A DNA stretch of 40,495 nucleotides from an uncultured Methanosarcinaceae archaeon (GCA_963721455.1 CAVRJG010000071.1:1-40495); one strand, 5' to 3'; positions 13,897 to 33,851 are shown, numbered from the stretch's first letter. Made by a program: numbers and translations. Notes: a model not told the origin generated them from the sequence alone.

Positions 13897-14280
13897 GTGC
13901 TAAACTCCTTAATTCTTGACAGTATGCCTTTTTTATTCCTTTATATATTTACTGTATTCTTTATCTCCGACTCCTTCTGAACTATTTATATAATTACCTT
14001 CACAGGAAAATATTTTTTTCTTTTTCCGCGTTTTTTTCTAAATAAAGAGTTTTCCTGCCAAATGCTTCAGGTATATACTCCCTGAGACACTACCCAACTT
14101 TTCTCAGGAGTGATATTAAGAAAGTAACGGAGCAAAAACATGCATAAATAATCTGTGCAAAAAATTATATATTATCTCTATATAAAAAAGACTCAGTTCC
14201 AAAATCTAGTGCATCGATTTCAAATTAGGGGGATAAAAATGGACTTTGAAATCAACACTTGTCAAAGAGTTTCCCATAAA

Positions 14281-14350
14281 AAACTGCAGATGGACACGGG
14301 TAAACACGAATTGAAACCATCTGTGTTCATCTGTGTTTATCCTGGGTTTA
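14281..14350. repeat. REP-like imperfect palindrome built from ~10-bp ACACAGAT/ATCTGTGT units
   Basis: AACTGCAGATGGACACGGGTAAACACG ... ATCTGTGTTCATCTGTGTTTATCCTGGGTTT. Confidence 0.5.
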
Positions 14351-14395
14351 TTGAGGATATATGGAATCGATGCACTAGTAAAAAAGGATGGATCG

Positions 14396-20696: not shown

Positions 20697-20802
20697 TCCT
20701 TTTAAACTCCGAAAGTAGATTTAACGCTTTATTACTTTCTAGGTATCTGTGCTCTTTTATTGTAGCTGCTGATATTTAATCTTTTTAAAATATTCATTTA
20801 TC

Positions 20803-20999
20803 GTAACTATTCAGCCTACCCAAAATCAGTTGATTGATATTGATTTTGACCTCACAGATAAGTGTGATTACTAACCAATGAAAAAATAAAAAATGCAATC
20901 AATAGCCAACAATTAACGAAAACTAATTCAGAGAAATTCGCCCACTGAACTTTATGAAAGATGGTTATTGATGTTGTTTTTCCCATGCTGAATAGTTTC
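20803..20999. mobile_element. MITE C (197 bp) with 8-bp TSD
   Basis: TIRs GTAACTATTCAGC (20803-20815) and GCTGAATAGTTTC (20987-20999), 12/13 match. Perfect CATTTATC direct repeats at 20795-20802 and 21000-21007. Confidence 0.85.
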
Positions 21000-21154
21000 C
21001 ATTTATCAAGCCTTAAATTTGTGAAAACAACACGAAAATAAAACAACACGAAAATGAAAGAAAACTAGGATAAAAAAATTAAATAAAAGGGAAGTAAGAA
21101 TCAAAGGGAAATTAAGATGTCTGAAGTTTCAGATAGCTTTTTCCTCTCCTTTAA

Positions 21155-25555: not shown

Positions 25556-26350
25556 TTACAGATTCTTTATTTCAATTGAAATCTCTTTATAATGCTTAAA
25601 AAGGTCTTCTCCCCATTTAATTGAAGACGAGTCAAAACCTATCAGGTCATTTCGAGGATCGAAGGTTCCGTTTTTGAAAAAGAGCGAAAGGGATAAGAAA
25701 CGATCTGTTACCACAAAAGCTATCTTTGCATTGTCATATACATGGAAACTTGTATGCTTGTATTTAAGGAATTCTTCAATTTCCGCACTATGCTCGCTTT
25801 TTATTTTGAAGAAAACATTGGGTGTAACAATTATGGAAATCGGAACATTCTTGCGGGCCAATTCCAGGAACATTGGGGGATGGCTTGGAAGAAAAATGGA
25901 TGAAAATCCCACGAACTGGGTAGAAGATAATACATTCTCTATAAATGCCTTATGAGTATCGTAAATATGTTCATGTTCATCTCTTACAACCATGCATTCT
26001 TTAAGTTCCTGAATCCTGCTTAACAACATATCAGGAATTGCAACAAGATCATGGTCTCTCCAGAAATTTTCATTTGCTTCTATAGCTGCGAGGGTGTCCA
26101 AGAAGGGCTTGTAATATATGGCTGAAACTTTCCCGAGGGGGGTCAAATGATACATTCCCTCCTGCCTGATAATCAAATTTGCGGTTTCCATCTCTTTCAG
26201 GCGAGGCAGAATTTCAGGTGACTTTACATCAAAATAATCTTTGATTTCGGAAAGAGTTCTCGGATTTTCCCGAAGTAGAAATAGAATATCCTTTCTTTTT
26301 TCAGAAAAGGTGAGAATACTTAAAAGTCCGTTGGATTTCACTTTTATCAA
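25556..26350 (-). CDS. Winged-helix (ArsR-like) regulator with DUF1724-type C-terminal domain
   Basis: SEKRKDILFLL..PRTLSEI HTH, FW..HDL..IP, VVTDRFLSLSLF..G.FD and WGEDLF..Y. Confidence 0.88.
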   Translation of the reverse strand: MIKVKSNGLLSILTFSEKRKDILFLLRENPRTLSEIKDYFDVKSPEILPRLKEMETANLIIRQEGMYHLTPLGKVSAIYYKPFLDTLAAIEANENFWRDHDLVAIPDMLLSRIQELKECMVVRDEHEHIYDTHKAFIENVLSSTQFVGFSSIFLPSHPPMFLELARKNVPISIIVTPNVFFKIKSEHSAEIEEFLKYKHTSFHVYDNAKIAFVVTDRFLSLSLFFKNGTFDPRNDLIGFDSSSIKWGEDLFKHYKEISIEIKNL

Positions 26351-26843
26351 CCCATTATTTTTAATTGTTCCTGGATATAATCGGGGCTTTATGTCCTTAA
26401 GTGGGCTCTCCGCTTTTGATTTACAATATATAAAATTTAAGTTTTATGTTCCTCTCTTTTTTTATATTGAATTGAGGTGACAGTTCTATCTGGATGATAT
26501 AACATTGCTATAATGATATACGAATTCAATATATATTATCTTTTTTGAGAGTGTACTTAATTATTAGTAATTTTTCTATCATTTCCTGCTTGTATGTATC
26601 TCCCTTCCGAAAAAGTAAATTGAGTCTTTGAATAATTTTTCATTGCAATAAAAAAAATTTTATATGTCAATAGTATTAGATTATTTTACTAATATACAGC
26701 TCAGAGTTAAGTATTCAGGCAATAGAACAAAAATAATAATTAAAAAATTAATATTCAAAATGAATTATTTATTAAATAATTGATAAAAGTAAGCTAGTTT
26801 TAAAGCAGGATATGTTAAATAAAATGTTAAATAAATTTAATAT

Positions 26844-27844
26844 CTGACTTTCCGCAGATGTCCGTTCAACTTTCACAATTTTTTCTACTATCGTTTTTCT
26901 GAAAATTTCCCTGCTTATTCAAACATGTTTTTTTGAAATGTCTTACACTTTTCAATCTTGTACTTTCATTGAAAGCTTCTAACTTACATTTCAGGAAGCT
27001 TCAGTTGAGATAATAATTGCAAATTTTAGAGCAAATATCCAAAAATGATAGCAAGAAAAATGTTATTTTCTTGAGACATGTCGGGTAAGTAGGGAGGATT
27101 ACTCCTCCTTTCTCCCCTAGGAACCGTACTTGAAAGTTTCCCTTCATACGGCTCGAGTGTTTTCAAACCCTTTCTGTATCAGGCACCAGTTATTTGCATA
27201 ACTGATTTTGTGATTCCGGATAACAGCCCACTAACATAATTGTCTGTAAGCCTCTCACCTATTGGTGTCGTTGAGTATCTTACATTTGTAGGTTTGTTTC
27301 CATTCACACAAGAAAACACCATCAGTAAGTCTGCATCCTTTCGGATTGAGGCAAAGTTTGAACCTCTGTCCAATCCATTACAGATTGGCATTCGCTTTTT
27401 ACTGAATCCTCTACCCTCAATGCCATCGTTATCCCTCGCGGGAGTCCTACCCATTATGGGAGCATTTAGGGCTTACCAAGTTCTATACTACAAATAATGT
27501 GAATACCTTAGAAGCCATCTATAAACCGAGAATCATTTGTCCATTTGCCATAATGTCCGCAGACCCATTATAGCCCGATTCTGTACCTTTTGGTTAAGCG
27601 CATCAACCTGCTTTCGCTTATTCCACTTCACGATTCTTACGATGGTTCACTTTACGTTCTTCATAGTATTCTTATCCTAACCAATTATCAAAGTCAGGCT
27701 CCTTGATTTCTTGATATTGTCATGTGAGCTCCACACACAAACGTTACCATTTATGCATGTCACAGTAGGATTACCTCAAATGGAAGAGGTAGCGTAATGG
27801 CGCGATTCATAGTATAGCTTCTTGTCGCACCTGCGGAAGGTCGG
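26844..27844. mobile_element. MITE D (IS1634-like, 250 bp once the intron is removed); right TIR interrupted by the group II intron
   Basis: Left TIR is CTGACTTTCCGCAGATGTC (26844-26862). The right TIR reconstructs as CCGACCTTCCGCAG|ATGTC (27844-27831 joined to 27079-27075), 17/19 match. 6-bp TSD TAATAT at 26838-26843 and 27845-27850. Confidence 0.85.
27080..27830 (-). ncRNA. ORF-less group II intron (751 nt)
   Basis: 5' GTGCG at 27830. Domain V is GAGCCGTATGAAGGGAAACTTTCAAGTACGGTTC (27154-27121) with an AGC triad. Domain VI ends ...CTTACCCGAC at 27080. The EBS1 loop (27562-27556) is complementary to the 5' exon. No RT ORF. Confidence 0.92.
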
Positions 27845-28200
27845 TAATATGTAAACATGTTTAAAAAAAGCTGGCTATATAACGTGATATATAACGTGAT
27901 ACATCTAATAAAATTGAGTGAGTTCTCGAAAACTGAACGAAGTATTACATCCAAATTTATTGATAAAAACGTTAAATTTAATATGTGGTCCAGATAGATC
28001 TGATCTCTTTATATCCTGAATTTCCTTGAAAAATATTAAAATATCGGTTTCCTCTGATACTCAAAGCTATTGTCAATTGAGCGTTAAAAGTTCTTGAAAT
28101 CAAGTTTGTAAATTTAATTTTTCCCTGCCCTTGGACGGCAGGGATTAGGATTCCGGTTTCGGATTCCGGTTTCGGTTCATTCGTTATTTTATCGGTTTTC

Positions 28201-29817
28201 TCAATGCAGGAAGTGGCGCATGCCTGTGAAGACCATGGCAACTCCGAGCCGGTTTGCAGTGGCAATAACCTCGCCGTCCCTGATTGACCCTCCTGGGGAG
28301 ACTATGTAGCGGATATTATTTTCGGCGGCATAAATTATGCTGTCATCGAAGGGGAAGAAAGCATCCGATGCCATTACGCATTCTGACATAACTTTCTGGC
28401 AATAATCTTCAAAGGAAACACCAGGATGTTCTCTTTCGTAAATTGTCCTCAGATTTTCGACAGCCTTTGTGGCTGCTAGTTTGCGGATCGAGTCAACCCT
28501 ATTCGGCTGCCCTGCACCCATAGCCAGTATCATGAAAAAGCCTGGCTCGTACTCATGAGCAAGGATCACTGCATTGGATTTGGTTGCTTTACAGGCTTTC
28601 AGGCAGAATTCCGAGATAGAGCGTTTGTCTTCAGGATAGGGGGCGTCTGTGACCGACTCCCATTTCTCGTAGATTCCGATGTCGCGGCTTTGCTTGAGCA
28701 TGCCTCCGATTATATACTTATATGTATATTCTGTTCCGAAAATTTCTCTGAGCTCAGGCAGTTTCAGGAGTCGCAGGTTCTCACTTTTATTTTTCAGGTA
28801 TTCAAGGGCATCGGGCTTGAAGTCAGGAGCAAGAATAATCTCCACAAATTTTCCATTCAGAAAAGTAGCAGCCTCAAGGTCAAAGATCTCATTCGTGCAG
28901 ATTATGCTTCCGTAAGCCGAAATCGGGTCTCCGTCCCAGGCAGCCCGAAGAGCCTGCAGGAGTGTGCTTCCGGTAGCAAGCCCGCATGGATTGTTATGTT
29001 TTACGATTGCTACTGCAGGGGAGGCATTTCCGAGTTCTTTTACCGTCTGAAGGGCATTGTCGGCATCCACATAGTTATTATAGGAAAGTTCCTTCCCATG
29101 CAGCTGGGCGGCTTTTGCCAGGCTAGGGCCTTCTATTTTAGGGTCTTTATAAAAATAGGCTTTCTGATGCCAGTTTTCTCCATAGCGGAGTTTCACGCCG
29201 TCAGTAAACTTCAGGCGAAGTGCTTCTTCTCCGAGCAGAGTCTTGCTAAGGTAAATATCGATGGCTGCATCGTAATCAGCAGTATGCCTGAAAGCCTTGA
29301 CTGCAAGGGCAGCTCGGGTTGAATTAGAAATTATTCCGCTTGAGCGCAGTTCTTTCAGGACGTGCCCGTAATCCGATGGGTCGGAGAGCACTGTTACCGA
29401 ACGGTAGTTCTTGGCTGCCGAGCGAAGGAGAGTTGGGCCTCCTATATCTATATTTTCAATGGCTTCCTCAAGTTCCACGCCCTCTTTTGAAACAGTTACT
29501 TCAAACGGATAGAGATTTACAGCCACCATATCAATGAGGGAGATCTCTTCTTTTGCAGCCTCCTCCATCTGTTCATTGCTTTCCCGCAGGCATAAGAGCC
29601 CTCCATGAATTCTCGGATGGAGAGTCTTGACCCTTCCTCCCATCATCTCCGGACAGCCCGTAACTTCCGAGACATCGGTAACTTCTATGCCGGCGTCGCG
29701 AAGAATTTTCGCTGTTCCGCCTGTTGAGACTATCTTCACGCCAAGTGATTCAAGCCCGCGTGCGAATTCTGCAATTCCTGTCTTATCTGAGACGCTGAGC
29801 AGTGCCCTTTTTACCAA
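28201..29817 (-). CDS. purH: Bifunctional AICAR transformylase/IMP cyclohydrolase
   Basis: RALLSVSDKTG, GRVKTLHP, IDIGGP, LRYGEN.HQ, ASDAFFPF and GMRHF.H motifs. Confidence 0.97.
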   Translation of the reverse strand: MVKRALLSVSDKTGIAEFARGLESLGVKIVSTGGTAKILRDAGIEVTDVSEVTGCPEMMGGRVKTLHPRIHGGLLCLRESNEQMEEAAKEEISLIDMVAVNLYPFEVTVSKEGVELEEAIENIDIGGPTLLRSAAKNYRSVTVLSDPSDYGHVLKELRSSGIISNSTRAALAVKAFRHTADYDAAIDIYLSKTLLGEEALRLKFTDGVKLRYGENWHQKAYFYKDPKIEGPSLAKAAQLHGKELSYNNYVDADNALQTVKELGNASPAVAIVKHNNPCGLATGSTLLQALRAAWDGDPISAYGSIICTNEIFDLEAATFLNGKFVEIILAPDFKPDALEYLKNKSENLRLLKLPELREIFGTEYTYKYIIGGMLKQSRDIGIYEKWESVTDAPYPEDKRSISEFCLKACKATKSNAVILAHEYEPGFFMILAMGAGQPNRVDSIRKLAATKAVENLRTIYEREHPGVSFEDYCQKVMSECVMASDAFFPFDDSIIYAAENNIRYIVSPGGSIRDGEVIATANRLGVAMVFTGMRHFLH

Positions 29818-30180
29818 AAAATCACCAATATACTTGGTTTCAAAATTATTAGCTATAAAACTTATGGTTTACACATTATTATATTAAAAAGAAACTTCTC
29901 TTTCCGGGAAAACCGAACTTCAATTCTGAAAATCCAGTATTCTCTTAAGCATGCTTTAACAACTCTTCTGGATATGTGGTTCTTTAAGTTTTTGGTACTT
30001 TGTATGCATAACTTTCTGGAAGTATACTATTATTGACTTCTTTCAGGAAAAGTGTTCACGTGAAATACTTATTCTTTGGAAACAGAATGAATAGGGGATG
30101 CATAGAGAAACTGCTTTTTCAGGATTACTTCTTTGATTTATTTTTTCCGAAGATAACATATCAAAGGGTTGGGGAATTTG

Positions 30181-31533
30181 ATGGAAAAGAAATACGATAT
30201 TATAATTATCGGGACAGGTACAGCAGGCAGGACTCTTGCAGGCAGGGCACGGTCATCAAGATTGAAATTCGCCATTATCGACTCAAGGGAGTATGGGGGT
30301 ACCTGCCCTCTTAGAGGCTGCGACCCAAAAAAGGTACTTGCAAGTGCGTCTGAAGCTACAGACCTGAATAATCGGCTGATAGGTAGAGGCACAGGGACGG
30401 AGAACCCTCTAGAGGTCGACTGGCCCTCACTTATCGAGTTCAAGAGAACGTTTACTGAGGACTATCCCCGTGAAACTGAAAAAATGCTCGCAGATTTGGG
30501 GATTGATATGTATCACGGAATAGCCCACTTTGCGGGTGAGAAAACCGTAATTGCCGGAGAGGATATACTCAAAGGGGAATATATCTTCATTGCGACGGGA
30601 TCAAAGCCCCGGAAACTGGGCATACCCGGCGAGGAATACCTTACAACGAATGAGGGTTTCATGGAAACTAAAAAGCTCCCTCAAAAGATCATTTTCATCG
30701 GGGGTGGCTACATCTCTTTCGAGTTTGCACACATTGCGAGAAGAGCAGGATCCGAGGTCTTAATCCTGCACAGGAGCGAAAAACCTCTCGGACCTTTCGA
30801 TCCCGATATGGTAGATCTGCTTGTAAAAGCTTCAGAAACAGCAGGCATTAAAATCCTTACAAACAACCAAGTGGAAGCTGTCGAAAAAGAAAATGACGGC
30901 TTTCTGGTCAGGACCGAATTCAGAATCGGGGCTCAGTCCGAAACCCGGACTTTTCATGCGGGCATGGTTTTTAACGGGGCCGGGAGAGTCCCTGATATCG
31001 AATACCTGAAACTTGAGAATGCAGACGTTAAGGCTGATAAGAAAGGTATTATAGTTGATAAACACATGCGGACTTCAAATCCACATATTTACGCTGGAGG
31101 AGACTGTGTCGCCGAAGGCATGAAACTAACTCCGGTAGCAACACTCCAGGGCCAGATTGCCGCAGCTAATATTCTGGATGGAGATGACGCAGAAGCCGAT
31201 TATGCCGGCATCCCGAGTGCAGTCTTTACCATTCCTGTCCTGGCTTCTGTGGGAATCAGTGCAGCAAAAGACAGCGATAAATATAAGGTGATTTTCCGGG
31301 ACAGAAGCAAATGGAAGACAACACGGAGAGTCGGCATCGAATTTGCAGCTTCAAAGGTAATTATAGACGAGGCAAGTGGCCGCATAATGGGAGCTCATAT
31401 CCTGGGCCCGAATGCTGAAGAAGCTATCAATATTTTTGCTATGGCAATAAGGCTTAACCTCAGTGTATCGGACATAAAAAAAGTAATCTTTACCTATCCT
31501 ACTATATGTTCGGATATTCCTTATATGCTGTAA
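30181..31533 (+). CDS. Class I pyridine nucleotide-disulfide oxidoreductase (glutathione reductase/LPD-like)
   Basis: GTGTAG, GGTCPLRGCDPKK redox CxxxxC, GGGYI and C-terminal YPT motifs. Confidence 0.9.
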   Translation: MEKKYDIIIIGTGTAGRTLAGRARSSRLKFAIIDSREYGGTCPLRGCDPKKVLASASEATDLNNRLIGRGTGTENPLEVDWPSLIEFKRTFTEDYPRETEKMLADLGIDMYHGIAHFAGEKTVIAGEDILKGEYIFIATGSKPRKLGIPGEEYLTTNEGFMETKKLPQKIIFIGGGYISFEFAHIARRAGSEVLILHRSEKPLGPFDPDMVDLLVKASETAGIKILTNNQVEAVEKENDGFLVRTEFRIGAQSETRTFHAGMVFNGAGRVPDIEYLKLENADVKADKKGIIVDKHMRTSNPHIYAGGDCVAEGMKLTPVATLQGQIAAANILDGDDAEADYAGIPSAVFTIPVLASVGISAAKDSDKYKVIFRDRSKWKTTRRVGIEFAASKVIIDEASGRIMGAHILGPNAEEAINIFAMAIRLNLSVSDIKKVIFTYPTICSDIPYML

Positions 31534-31669
31534 AACTTCCTGCAAGACCCGGACGCAGGCACTCAAACTTACCTTCTGATGCCTTACTCCGGGAAACGTA
31601 ATACAGATTCCGCAAAGAAAGTACGCTTCCGCTGAAACCGGAAACAAACCCGAAAATCTGGAGTTACTC

Positions 31670-32374
31670 ATGCCTGAAAAAAAGCCCAAAAAATCGGATA
31701 CTCAAGATTCTCTTTATGAATATGATCTCCCTGACAACAGGCACAATTTTGACCGGATCTGGGCTCTTCTAAAAAAAGAGTATCCGAACGCAAAACCTTC
31801 TCTTAACTACAGTAGTCCCCTTGAACTTCTTGTGGCAACCGTTCTTTCAGCCCAGTCAACCGATGTCCAGATTAACAGAGTGACTGAAAAGCTGTTCAAA
31901 AAGTACAGAACTGCGGAAGACTATGCAAACGCAGACCTCAGGGAACTTGAGATCGATGTCTATTCCACAGGCTTTTACAAAAACAAAGCAAAGAATATCA
32001 AAGCTGCTGCGCAACTGATTGTTGAGAAATACAATGGTGAAGTCCCGGACGCTATGGAAGAACTGGTTAGTTTGCCAGGCGTCGGGAGAAAAACAGCTAA
32101 TATAGTGCTTGCCAGGGCATTTGGGATAATTGAGGGTATCGCTGTGGACACGCATGTAAAAAGGGTTTCAAGAAGGCTGGGATTTACGAAAAACTCCGAC
32201 CCTGACAAAATTGAACAGGACATTCTATCTCTTGCTCGAAAGGAAGACCTTGATTCAATCTCCATGACCCTGATTTATCATGGGAGGGAAGTCTGCCAGG
32301 CAAGAAAACCAAAATGTCCATCCTGCGTTGTGAACCAGCTCTGCCCTTCGAGTATAATATTTATAAATCCTTAA
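31670..32374 (+). CDS. nth: Endonuclease III
   Basis: LSAQSTD, HhH LPGVGRKTA, AVDTHV and the C-x6-C-x2-C-x5-C [4Fe-4S] motif. Confidence 0.95.
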   Translation: MPEKKPKKSDTQDSLYEYDLPDNRHNFDRIWALLKKEYPNAKPSLNYSSPLELLVATVLSAQSTDVQINRVTEKLFKKYRTAEDYANADLRELEIDVYSTGFYKNKAKNIKAAAQLIVEKYNGEVPDAMEELVSLPGVGRKTANIVLARAFGIIEGIAVDTHVKRVSRRLGFTKNSDPDKIEQDILSLARKEDLDSISMTLIYHGREVCQARKPKCPSCVVNQLCPSSIIFINP

Positions 32375-32418
32375 CCTCAATTTTCCTGGGAGACGATGGA
32401 AATTTTTAATCCAGAACT

Positions 32419-32724
32419 TCAGGCTTTTTTATTGAACACTTTCCCAAGACCTAAACTGATTGTCAGTACTGTAAGTGTTCCCACTGCAATCGCCAGGACT
32501 TCTCCGCTCTTCCCCAAGCCTTCAATTGAATAGTCAGGCATTGGGGACCCAACTACTGGTTCAGATTCTTCAATTTGGGCCATTTTCGATTCTTCAACTA
32601 TCCCTCCAGCAGCACTTTCAAGCCCGTCGGGGTCTGGAGATGCAAGGAAGGGGGCTAGAACCGCGAGCAAAAGCGCAATCACAATTCCAGCGTAAAAGAA
32701 TTTCATGTTTGATTTTCCACTCAT
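32419..32724 (-). CDS. PDGLE-domain Co/Ni ECF transporter subunit (CbiN/NikN-like)
   Basis: ASPDPDGLE and PMPDY motifs; start overlaps the cbiM stop. Confidence 0.9.
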
Positions 32725-33386
32725 GCATGTGTCTCCTTTTTAATCCGGTCTGATCTGGTAGTAAAACTATCTTCAAGAAGGTCAGGGCGGGATTTTGCAA
32801 TTGCTGTGATTACAACTGCAGTGATCAGCCCTTCTCCGATAAAACCAATTATCAGGTGATAGGTTCCCATTGTAATAAGTCCCGGAACCAGGGGGAAGGT
32901 GCCAGCAAGCCACATCTGGACAGCACAGGCAATTGCCGAGGTAAAGAGCCCGAGCCAGGCGCCTCCGAAGGCTGCAGTGCTTGTGCCTGCGCTCTTGCGA
33001 AGGGCAACATAGGTATAATATCCGACAAACCCGGAAATGATCCCCATATTCAGAATATTTGCTCCCATGGTAGTGACCCCACCGTCACCAAAGGCGAACC
33101 CCTGCACAATCAGGACTAAAGTAAGCACAAGGACTCCAGCCCAGGGGCTTCCGAAGACGATAGCAACAAGGGTTGCTCCTACCATGTGCCCGCTTGTCCC
33201 CATCCCTATGGGAATGTTCATGGCCTGGATTGCAAAGATTCCTGCTGCGAGGGCGGCAAGAATCGGTACTTTCATTTCATCAAGCTCGTTCTTTGCCCAT
33301 TTCATTGACATTATAATAAACGGAAGGGCGATTACCCAATAGACGATTGCCTGGGTTAACGGTATAAAAGAATCAGGTATATGCAT
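32721..33386 (-). CDS. cbiM: Co/Ni ECF transporter substrate-binding component CbiM/NikM
   Basis: N-terminal MHIPD, GTSGH and GDGG.T..GAN..NM motifs. Confidence 0.92.
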
Positions 33387-33851
33387 TTTTGTTTTCCTCT
33401 TTTTACACCTTATTTTTTATTTTTCCCGTTTTTACTGTGAACATTCCAGTCAATAGATTTTTCAGAACATTCATCATAAAGGATAAAACACTAAATGAAA
33501 TCCAAATTTACGGAGTGTTTTCATGTGAATGAAAGACCGTTTATTAATCTATTATAACTGTTATCGCTATTCATTTCGGTATGAATTGTTGAAAGATTTC
33601 TGATCTACTCTTAGATAATTCAGTATTACATATATACATTTTGGTATTACTTTTTTCTACAATTTTTTTTATTGAAACCTTCTTCAGTATCTGTATTTTT
33701 ATTTTTTAGTCGAATTAAGGAACGACGGAAATATAATTTCAAGTATTTCTGTTACCGATATTGTTTTTGATGGTTATTTGGGGAAATGGAATTATACGGC
33801 CATTTCCAAAGTGAAAACTTGAAGTTATTACATAGGGAGCGCGGAGGGTCA

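Follow-up and report, generated by a model that had tools for sequence, protein, structure and literature searches.

The stretch of DNA analysed here (the window) comprises 40,495 nucleotides from an uncultured Methanosarcinaceae archaeon (GCA_963721455.1, CAVRJG010000071.1:1-40495) whose genome encodes McrA, which identifies the host as a methanogen. Between genes for a purH-type protein (29817..28201, minus strand) and a FilR1-type regulator (26350..25556, minus strand), the window contains a 1001-bp unit bracketed by the hexamer TAATAT at 26838-26843 and 27845-27850. The unit consists of a miniature inverted-repeat transposable element (MITE) with a group II intron inserted in its right terminal inverted repeat (TIR); the intron lacks the open reading frame (ORF) for a reverse transcriptase (RT). 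The intron reads target DNA by means of exon-binding sites (EBS) that pair with intron-binding sites (IBS) in the flanking exons. The features of the unit and the evidence for them are:

26838..26843, no strand: left 6-bp target-site duplication TAATAT, identical to 27845-27850
26844..27079, plus strand: MITE body, left 236 bp of 250; intron-free copies and end resemblance
26844-26862, within the MITE body: left TIR, CTGACTTTCCGCAGATGTC
27075-27079, within the MITE body: inner 5 nt of the right TIR, GACAT
27079, minus strand: IBS3, A, at position +1 of the 3' exon
27080..27830, minus strand: ORF-less group II intron, GUGCGAC...CCCGAC; Rfam, 13 own-genome copies, consensus fold, no Pfam match in its ORFs
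27080..27156, minus strand: domains 5 and 6; Rfam Intron_gpII
27193..27219, minus strand: domain 4 remnant from the 5' portion of an RT reading frame; 23/27 against a sibling intron
27521, minus strand: candidate EBS3, U; alignment column 317 tracks the first 3'-exon base
27556..27562, minus strand: EBS1, CUGCGGA, in a 10-nt hairpin loop; 7/7 pairing, co-switching, hairpin covariation
27604..27609, minus strand: AGGUUG, a terminal loop earlier taken for EBS2, not EBS2; pattern kept across lineages
27623..27628, minus strand: EBS2, AAGUGG, in an internal loop 5' of an AAGCG...CGCUU hairpin; covaries with exon positions -13..-8 and explains site occupancy
27681..27791, minus strand: 5' part of domain 1; Rfam group-II-D1D4-7
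27831..27844, minus strand: outer 14 nt of the right TIR, forming the end of the 5' exon: C, IBS2 CGACCU, IBS1 UCCGCAG
27845..27850, no strand: right target-site duplication TAATAT, identical to the left copy

The intron was identified by matches of the minus strand to the Rfam models group-II-D1D4-7 at 27791..27681 (68.9 bits, gathering score 34; RF02012) and Intron_gpII at 27156..27080 (63.5 bits, gathering score 40; RF00029, model positions 1-77 of 77). Its limits are 27830..27080 on the minus strand (751 nt) and, with a caret marking the insertion point here and below, the junctions read ...ACCGACCTTCCGCAG^GTGCGACAAG...CTTACCCGAC^ATGTCTCAAG, the two intron edges being CCGACCTTCCGCAG^GTGCGAC and CCCGAC^ATGTCTC. 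The termini fit the group II consensus GUGYG and AY (GUGCG at 27830-27826 and GAC at 27082-27080, minus strand), and the A at 27086 on the same strand is a candidate for the branch point. No RT or maturase frame was found when the ORFs inside the intron were searched against Pfam at an E value of 0.1, which gave zero matches. Within domain 4, 27 nt at 27219..27193 (minus strand) are identical at 23 positions to nt 670-696 of an RT-encoding sibling (score 34, versus a maximum of 29 in 200 shuffles), a remnant of the RT frame that fits an ORF-less intron arising by ORF deletion. The intron is co-directional with the purH-type gene and lies 370 nt downstream of it, and read-through from that gene could supply intron RNA. 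A scan with sigma-70 promoter and terminator models, which is not applicable to an archaeon, gave fewer promoter-like sites than shuffled sequences.

Removal of 27080-27830 restores a right end, CCGACCTTCCGCAGATGTC, with 17 of 19 positions identical to the left end, CTGACTTTCCGCAGATGTC, and leaves an element of 250 bp without transposase in which the intron lies 14 nt inside the right TIR. The same element of about 250 bp is present without intron in four copies elsewhere in the genome (two on contig C39 and one each on C53 and C54; 94-97% identity), and the three intron-free copies caught by the end motif have 6-bp duplications of their own (ATGTTT, AGCGAG and TTAGAA), so that the MITE is more than a chance arrangement. 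Its ends resemble the end CTGACCTTCCGCAG^ATGTCTGA of a 1.7-kb element on C52, in which two overlapping ORFs match the two halves of the transposase of the IS1634 family of insertion sequences (IS), NF033559 (199.6 and 183.5 bits), as well as Pfam DUF4277 and DDE_Tnp_1. About 20 matches to NF033559 above its cut-off are present in the genome and several of these are intact. Judged by its short length, its TIRs, the 6-bp duplications at four copies and the IS-like ends, the MITE belongs to the IS1634 family (IS4 superfamily). A preliminary description made from the window sequence had proposed an ORF-less group II intron in the end of a MITE, and its coordinates for the unit, the TIR match and the TAATAT duplication were all reproduced. 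It had also taken both elements to be non-autonomous, in agreement with the lack of Pfam matches in the intron ORFs and with a MITE that has no transposase and whose ends match an element encoding an IS1634 transposase.

The junctions bear on how the intron reached the MITE. Homologous exchange with another intron-bearing IS end, rather than reverse splicing, could be envisaged since the TIRs of different elements have TTCCGCAG in common and the intron copies are long identical repeats, and since the different intron variant at a paralogous locus on C44 (see below) could be explained by gene conversion. However, the 5' junction retains the CCGACC end of the MITE itself rather than the cognate CCCACT, and the 3' junction runs exactly into the MITE. 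With both junctions specific to the MITE, any exchange would have to fall inside the intron, and we consider this route improbable.

Intron copies and reverse transcriptase genes in the genome

The genome contains 18 matches to domains 5 and 6 and, according to blastn, 13 ORF-less copies of the window-intron lineage. Compared with the window copy, ten of the 13 are 97-100% identical, two are 91% identical and have a mutated 5' end, ATTCG, and one is 81% identical. Among the ten close copies is a set of seven with 100% identity to each other, from which an eighth differs by 1 nt; this points to a recent burst. The window copy differs from the burst copies at 22 nt and from the copy at C52:170705 at 9 nt. 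On C59 (L012 1368-2600), a full intron is preceded, 384 bp upstream, by a second copy of its 5' flank and of the initial 167 nt of the intron, which is either a partial tandem duplication or an assembly artefact.

Three RT-encoding siblings of 2.14 kb, two on C15 and one on C19, are 84% identical over domains 1-3 and 99.7-99.9% identical to each other. Their open frame is intact, with about 500 codons (497 amino acids from the first TTG), and includes RVT_N, RVT_1 and GIIM domains and an intact YADD motif, while a domain search found no HNH domain. Matches to TIGR04416 in the genome are confined to C15 (two), C19 and C35, and the genome holds four intact RT genes. Among solved structures, the best match of the sibling RT was to 6ME0 chain C (E = 1.4e-151; the comparison included no class D protein). 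We take 6ME0 to be the T.el4h RT, and the domain content and this match together suggest that the sibling RT/maturase is endonuclease-less and closest to the T.el4h type. The siblings thus lie on contigs other than that of the window, and further copies of the intron are found at IS and MITE ends. Group II introns of other lineages occur at C35:15037-17100, with an intact RT frame of 499 codons, and at C45:33112-33186, a match to domains 5 and 6 with no RT match nearby.

Relatives of some kind were found in 27 of the 41 genomes searched, the own genome included. The nearest full-length relative in the other genomes is only 77% identical, and two fragments from two other genomes, with 88-91% identity and retained 5' ends, are located at CTGACTTTCCGCAG^ and CCTACATTCCGCAG^.

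RNA pairing and the choice of transposon ends

For the analysis of fold and covariation we aligned five variants from the own genome with eight relatives from other genomes. The RNAalifold consensus contained 157 pairs, 78 of them with compensatory changes. EBS1, CUGCGGA (27562-27556), is located in a 10-nt hairpin loop, the stem of which is compensated in 6 of 8 pairs, and it pairs with UCCGCAG at 7 of 7 positions. In the own genome, EBS1 and the end of the 5' exon switch together: CUGCGGA is combined with UCCGCAG in 10 copies, CUGCCGA with UCGGCAG in 5 copies (C25, C12 and the three RT copies) and UACAGAA with UUCUGUA in 1 copy (C49). The three exon pairs and the covariation of the hairpin confirm EBS1, and the fold leaves it where the preliminary description had placed it.

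The EBS2 of that description, AGGUUG (27609-27604), did not hold up. It is the terminal loop of the AAGCG...CGCUU hairpin, a loop that changes little whatever the target, and columns 222-236 of the alignment keep the pattern GAAA..GG.UGA across lineages with unrelated targets. EBS2 is instead AAGUGG, which pairs with CCACUU of the cognate sites at 6 of 6 positions and with CGACCU of the window MITE at 4 of 6, the mismatches being at -12 and -9. Equivalent segments and their targets in other lineages are AAGCAG and CUGCUU (RT lineage), ACUUUU and GAAAGU (G018), AAAACC and GGUUUU (G001), and ACUUAU and AUGAGU (G026). In a matrix of 12 introns by 12 exons, the best score in 11 of the 12 rows, all but that of G011, fell to the intron's own exon or to another exon with the same type of target. 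The unpaired column 317, a candidate for EBS3, reads T in copies whose 3' exon begins with A, apart from one T copy, C54:92263, with T at +1. It reads C in those with an initial G, namely C25, C12, G038 and the RT copies. The IIB class is defined by an EBS2 in an internal rather than a terminal loop and by a single-base EBS3-IBS3 pair. Both features are present here, with EBS2 between stem columns 200-205/310-315 and hairpin columns 216-242 and an EBS3 column that tracks A or G in the 3' exon, and by the placement of EBS2 and EBS3 alone the intron has a IIB-type domain 1.

We reconstructed the sites as they would be without intron and searched the genome for homologous sequence. For six of the ten close copies (C71, C44, C52:170705, C59, C54:92263 and C54:148564), homology to other elements begins at -14. 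The site at C52:222944 is the end of the transposase-encoding element on C52, with NF033559 split into two ORFs, and a different repeat abuts the same point. Identifiable IS or MITE ends thus host 7 of the 10 close copies, and a TIR-like 5' exon is present in 10 of 10. Partner inverted repeats were found for 5 of the 10, one of which, at C54:148564, is a 251-bp MITE with a TTTAAT duplication. An ungapped scan of 4 kb detected no partner TIR for C54:92263, C30, C13, C8, C25/C12, C49 or the two C15 copies; at C30, the contig does not include the remainder of the upstream repeat that is interrupted there. In terms of sequence, the target read by the RNA of this lineage, CCACUU-UCCGCAG^A (-13..+1), is the outer 13-14 nt of IS1634-family IS and MITE ends. 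The preferred end is (C)CCACTTTCCGCAG^A.

A census of both strands of the genome identified 639 exact TCCGCAG sites, which were sorted by their pairing with EBS2:

6/6 pairing: 12 sites, 9 occupied (8 loci; C59 counted twice)
5/6 pairing: 37 sites, 0 occupied
4/6 pairing: 123 sites, 2 occupied (the window and C44)

The three vacant 6/6 sites also have TIR-type flanks. The window site pairs at 4/6 with EBS2 and perfectly at IBS1 and IBS3, which makes it a near-cognate rather than a cognate end, and the other CGACCT ends of this MITE type are vacant in 5 of 5 cases (the four complete intron-free copies and a fragment on C38). The earlier proposal that an IS or MITE end serves as the homing site stands for the other copies, which lie at such ends and not in unrelated sites, but the end of the window MITE is not the one that the family prefers.

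These data also bear on whether the copies spread passively with transposing IS and MITEs, the common flank being a transposon end in which the intron was carried along and not a homing site. About 14 nt of 5' flank are common to all copies, as expected for a passenger fixed in one element end, and the window and C44 copies have the same host element and right flank. However, the seven identical introns reside in different hosts (a 1.7-kb IS1634 element, a MITE of about 250 bp and others) with unrelated 3' exons, EBS1, EBS2 and EBS3 covary with the flank across lineages, and occupancy follows EBS2 pairing. Moreover, the window and C44 copies represent one duplicated segment of 6.5 kb and not two transpositions. 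Passive spread is therefore highly improbable as an explanation for the family.

The RT-encoding introns and the copies on C25 and C12 form a sister lineage with EBS1 CUGCCGA, EBS2 AAGCAG and EBS3 C. They are sited in CCTGCTTTCGGCAG^G ends, occupy ends of the form CC(T)GC(T/A)TTCGGCAG^G, and would, by their EBS letters, be predicted to direct insertion into CTGCTTTCGGCAG^G. Ends of this type also border an intact IS1634 transposase of 552 amino acids (C30 7272-8998) and many MITEs of about 285 bp, and of the sites with 6/6 pairing to AAGCAG, 3 of 20 are occupied. Between the two lineages, EBS1 and EBS3 differ at a single base each and EBS2 at two, changes that indicate two sister lineages matched to two IS1634 TIR subfamilies.

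Vacant ends of both kinds were also seen. A MITE of about 285 bp in the window itself (1999-2285), 99-100% identical on at least 12 other contigs, has CCTACTTTCGGCAG^GTCGAC at both ends; these are of the RT-lineage type, pair at 5/6 with EBS2 and are vacant. Two IS1634 copies with intact transposases of 532 amino acids (C52:173862-175549 and C53:19836-21523) have the end CAGACTTTCCGCAT, which is one base (-1) off the IBS1 of the ORF-less intron, and both are vacant; such ends may be escaping the intron. A repeat containing ...GGCAGAGATTGAATTGAATGTACTTACAGGTCAATG... (C30:14282-14381, C52:225393-225450 and about 9 further contigs) is broken by, or adjoins, IS1634-type ends at ATTGAA(T), and GAAT or TAAT stands directly outside the TIR at several intron-bearing ends. 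This flank pattern could stem either from a target preference of the IS or from the intron protein reading the distal exon.

The window copy and the mobility of the intron

The segment C44:148053-154614 matches window positions 26851-33409 with 98.9% identity and has, at the same site, an intron of the burst variant. The flanks of the two loci differ by 0.81% and the introns by 2.9% (22 differences). The preliminary description had considered whether intron and MITE move as one unit; no second locus had an intron-bearing MITE with a different duplication, and since the one further copy, on C44, has the same right flank, a co-mobile unit was rejected. The C44 paralog of the MITE is cut at the left TIR, within 3 nt of the intron-target position, and to its left are 3.3 kb of about 69% GC (C44:154615-157964; L008 7616-10965) with ABC-transporter and Rrf2 fragments, in a genome of about 40% GC. 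The join is probably a chimeric assembly join, the alternative being foreign DNA. Further repeats in the window include positions 1-1800, which recur at 98-99.6% identity on C40 and at the start of C39, and two segments of about 175-200 bp (14205-14380 and 20800-21000), each present on 4-7 contigs.

Public data were covered by metagenomic Logan contigs of four runs, compared with window positions 26600-28100. The flank at 27875-28100 had no cover in the four runs, which therefore probably hold relatives rather than the window locus. Contig pieces with 0 differences from the window intron over 151-202 nt were present in run X19, on record as RNA, and in run X1, probably DNA. Each of these runs also holds a contig that joins the 3' end of the intron to its 5' end (27830 directly to 27080; 87+151 nt and 66+ nt on the two sides). 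This junction, which is absent from the own assembly, may represent a head-to-tail tandem or an intron circle and provides a weak hint of activity.

A different view of the window copy is that it is an old inactive relic, an older variant in a poor site that tells little about current mobility. Its distance of 22 nt from the burst copies and 9 nt from its nearest relative, and a site that pairs at only 4/6 with EBS2, are in line with this, as is the lack of a spliced junction in the run contigs, which cannot show absence. On the other hand, its domains 5 and 6 score 63.5 bits, equal to the burst copies, its EBS1, EBS2 and EBS3 are unchanged, and the zero-difference pieces in X19 and X1 include the head-to-tail junction. 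On balance we find a relic rather unlikely.

The locus is thus very probably an ORF-less intron in the end of an IS1634-type MITE and a member of a family in which the RNA recognises the terminal 13-14 nt of IS1634 ends; the perfect sites of the family are nearly filled and the window copy represents spill-over. The intron would have entered the MITE by reverse splicing into DNA and been copied by an RT acting in trans and encoded by one of the four intact RT genes. Because the sibling RT has no endonuclease, priming probably used DNA at the replication fork. The split of the transposase-binding end probably cripples the MITE.

Several observations weigh against this reading. Three of the ten close copies (C30, C13 and C8) show a TIR-like 5' exon only, with no recognisable IS interior or partner repeat, and of the 5 elements for which a partner TIR was identified, only 2, the MITEs of the window and of C54, show a duplication. 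The left TIR, TGACTT, pairs at 5/6 with EBS2, yet it is vacant in 5 of 5 complete copies, that of the window included, and since these better-pairing ends are vacant, base-pairing alone does not explain the choice of site. The variant on C44 implies gene conversion or, alternatively, two insertions into one poor site. In domain 4, the ORF-less intron has only the 27-nt remnant in common with the RT sibling, so recognition by the sibling RT in trans is not assured. Finally, no joint of spliced exons skipping 27080-27830 was present in the contigs of the four runs, although contigs of this kind cannot show absence.

It is tentatively possible that the lineages track two TIR subfamilies, that the ORF-less lineage, present at 9 of 12 perfect ends, is spilling over into near-cognate ones, and that, if the split at position 14 blocks the transposase, the introns act as a natural brake on the expansion of IS1634 elements and MITEs. 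If so, intact IS copies would persist because their ends escape pairing, as exemplified by CAGACTTTCCGCAT (mismatch at -1) and by CCTAC ends (5/6 with the EBS2 of the RT lineage).

Comparison with known systems

The closest parallel in siting is RmInt2 of Sinorhizobium meliloti GR4, all copies of which are located in the inverted repeats of ISRm17 with the IBS region (-14..+1) inside the repeat; according to its authors this siting doubles the number of targets and guarantees a target on the lagging strand (PMC4615759). RmInt2 has an intron-encoded protein (IEP) without endonuclease, tolerates insertion with only four EBS2/IBS2 pairs, has U as EBS3 and forms head-to-tail double insertions (PMC4615759). 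The window-intron family likewise has copies in IS inverted repeats that include the IBS region, a window site with 4/6 EBS2 pairing, U as the candidate EBS3, and a head-to-tail junction in public runs. In contrast to RmInt2, which is bacterial, of class D and equipped with its own RT (PMC4615759), the window intron is archaeal and ORF-less, with a sibling RT closest to the T.el4h type, its hosts are IS1634-family elements and MITEs, and two sister lineages are distributed over two TIR subfamilies.

The TeI3 and TeI4 introns of Thermosynechococcus elongatus form families distinguished by their EBS, include ORF-less members for which driver IEPs in trans have been proposed, and are in some cases inserted at a conserved IS site (PMC2882425). 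The window-intron family resembles them in its EBS-defined groups, its ORF-less members and its insertion in IS, and its sibling RT best matches 6ME0 chain C. The TeI4h IEP has an endonuclease domain (PMC2882425), whereas the sibling RT lacks HNH and ends about 80 residues short of that protein. The T. elongatus introns live in a thermophilic cyanobacterium and those described here in a mesophilic-type methanogen, where their targets are IS termini. In Methanosarcina acetivorans, ORF-less and RT-encoding introns are described as homing site-specifically into other group II introns, giving nested twintrons (PMC4424553, PMC2882425). The archaeal host, the presence of ORF-less beside RT-encoding introns and the homing into other mobile DNA are shared features, but the M. 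acetivorans introns are described in citing papers as entering other introns, and the window-intron family enters IS ends. IStrons are single chimeric units of a group I intron and IS200/605 that transpose as DNA and are removed whole from RNA by splicing (PMC4227781). They share with the window unit a self-splicing intron joined to a transposon end, but the ribozyme of the window matches group II models, the host is of IS1634 and not IS200/605 type, and the intron is a separate retroelement whose predicted splicing would leave the MITE in the transcript; an IStron was rejected on these grounds.

No description of archaeal introns in IS1634 ends was found in the openly accessible literature or in the accessible part of a 2024 preprint on archaeal introns, subscription papers (e.g. 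Simon et al. 2008) being outside the scope of this search. Homing into IS inverted repeats and trans-mobilised ORF-less families are already known from bacteria, and the case presented here is no new kind of system. New are the archaeal host, the IS1634 and MITE targets, the near-saturated cognate ends and the paired retargeting of sister lineages. The strategy of homing into IS inverted repeats thereby reaches beyond rhizobia to archaea, and to a family that is ORF-less and trans-dependent, in which the part of the target normally read by protein falls outside the transposon and varies between copies. The family offers a well-resolved natural data set on how group II introns choose DNA targets by RNA pairing alone, and a testable case of one selfish element limiting another.

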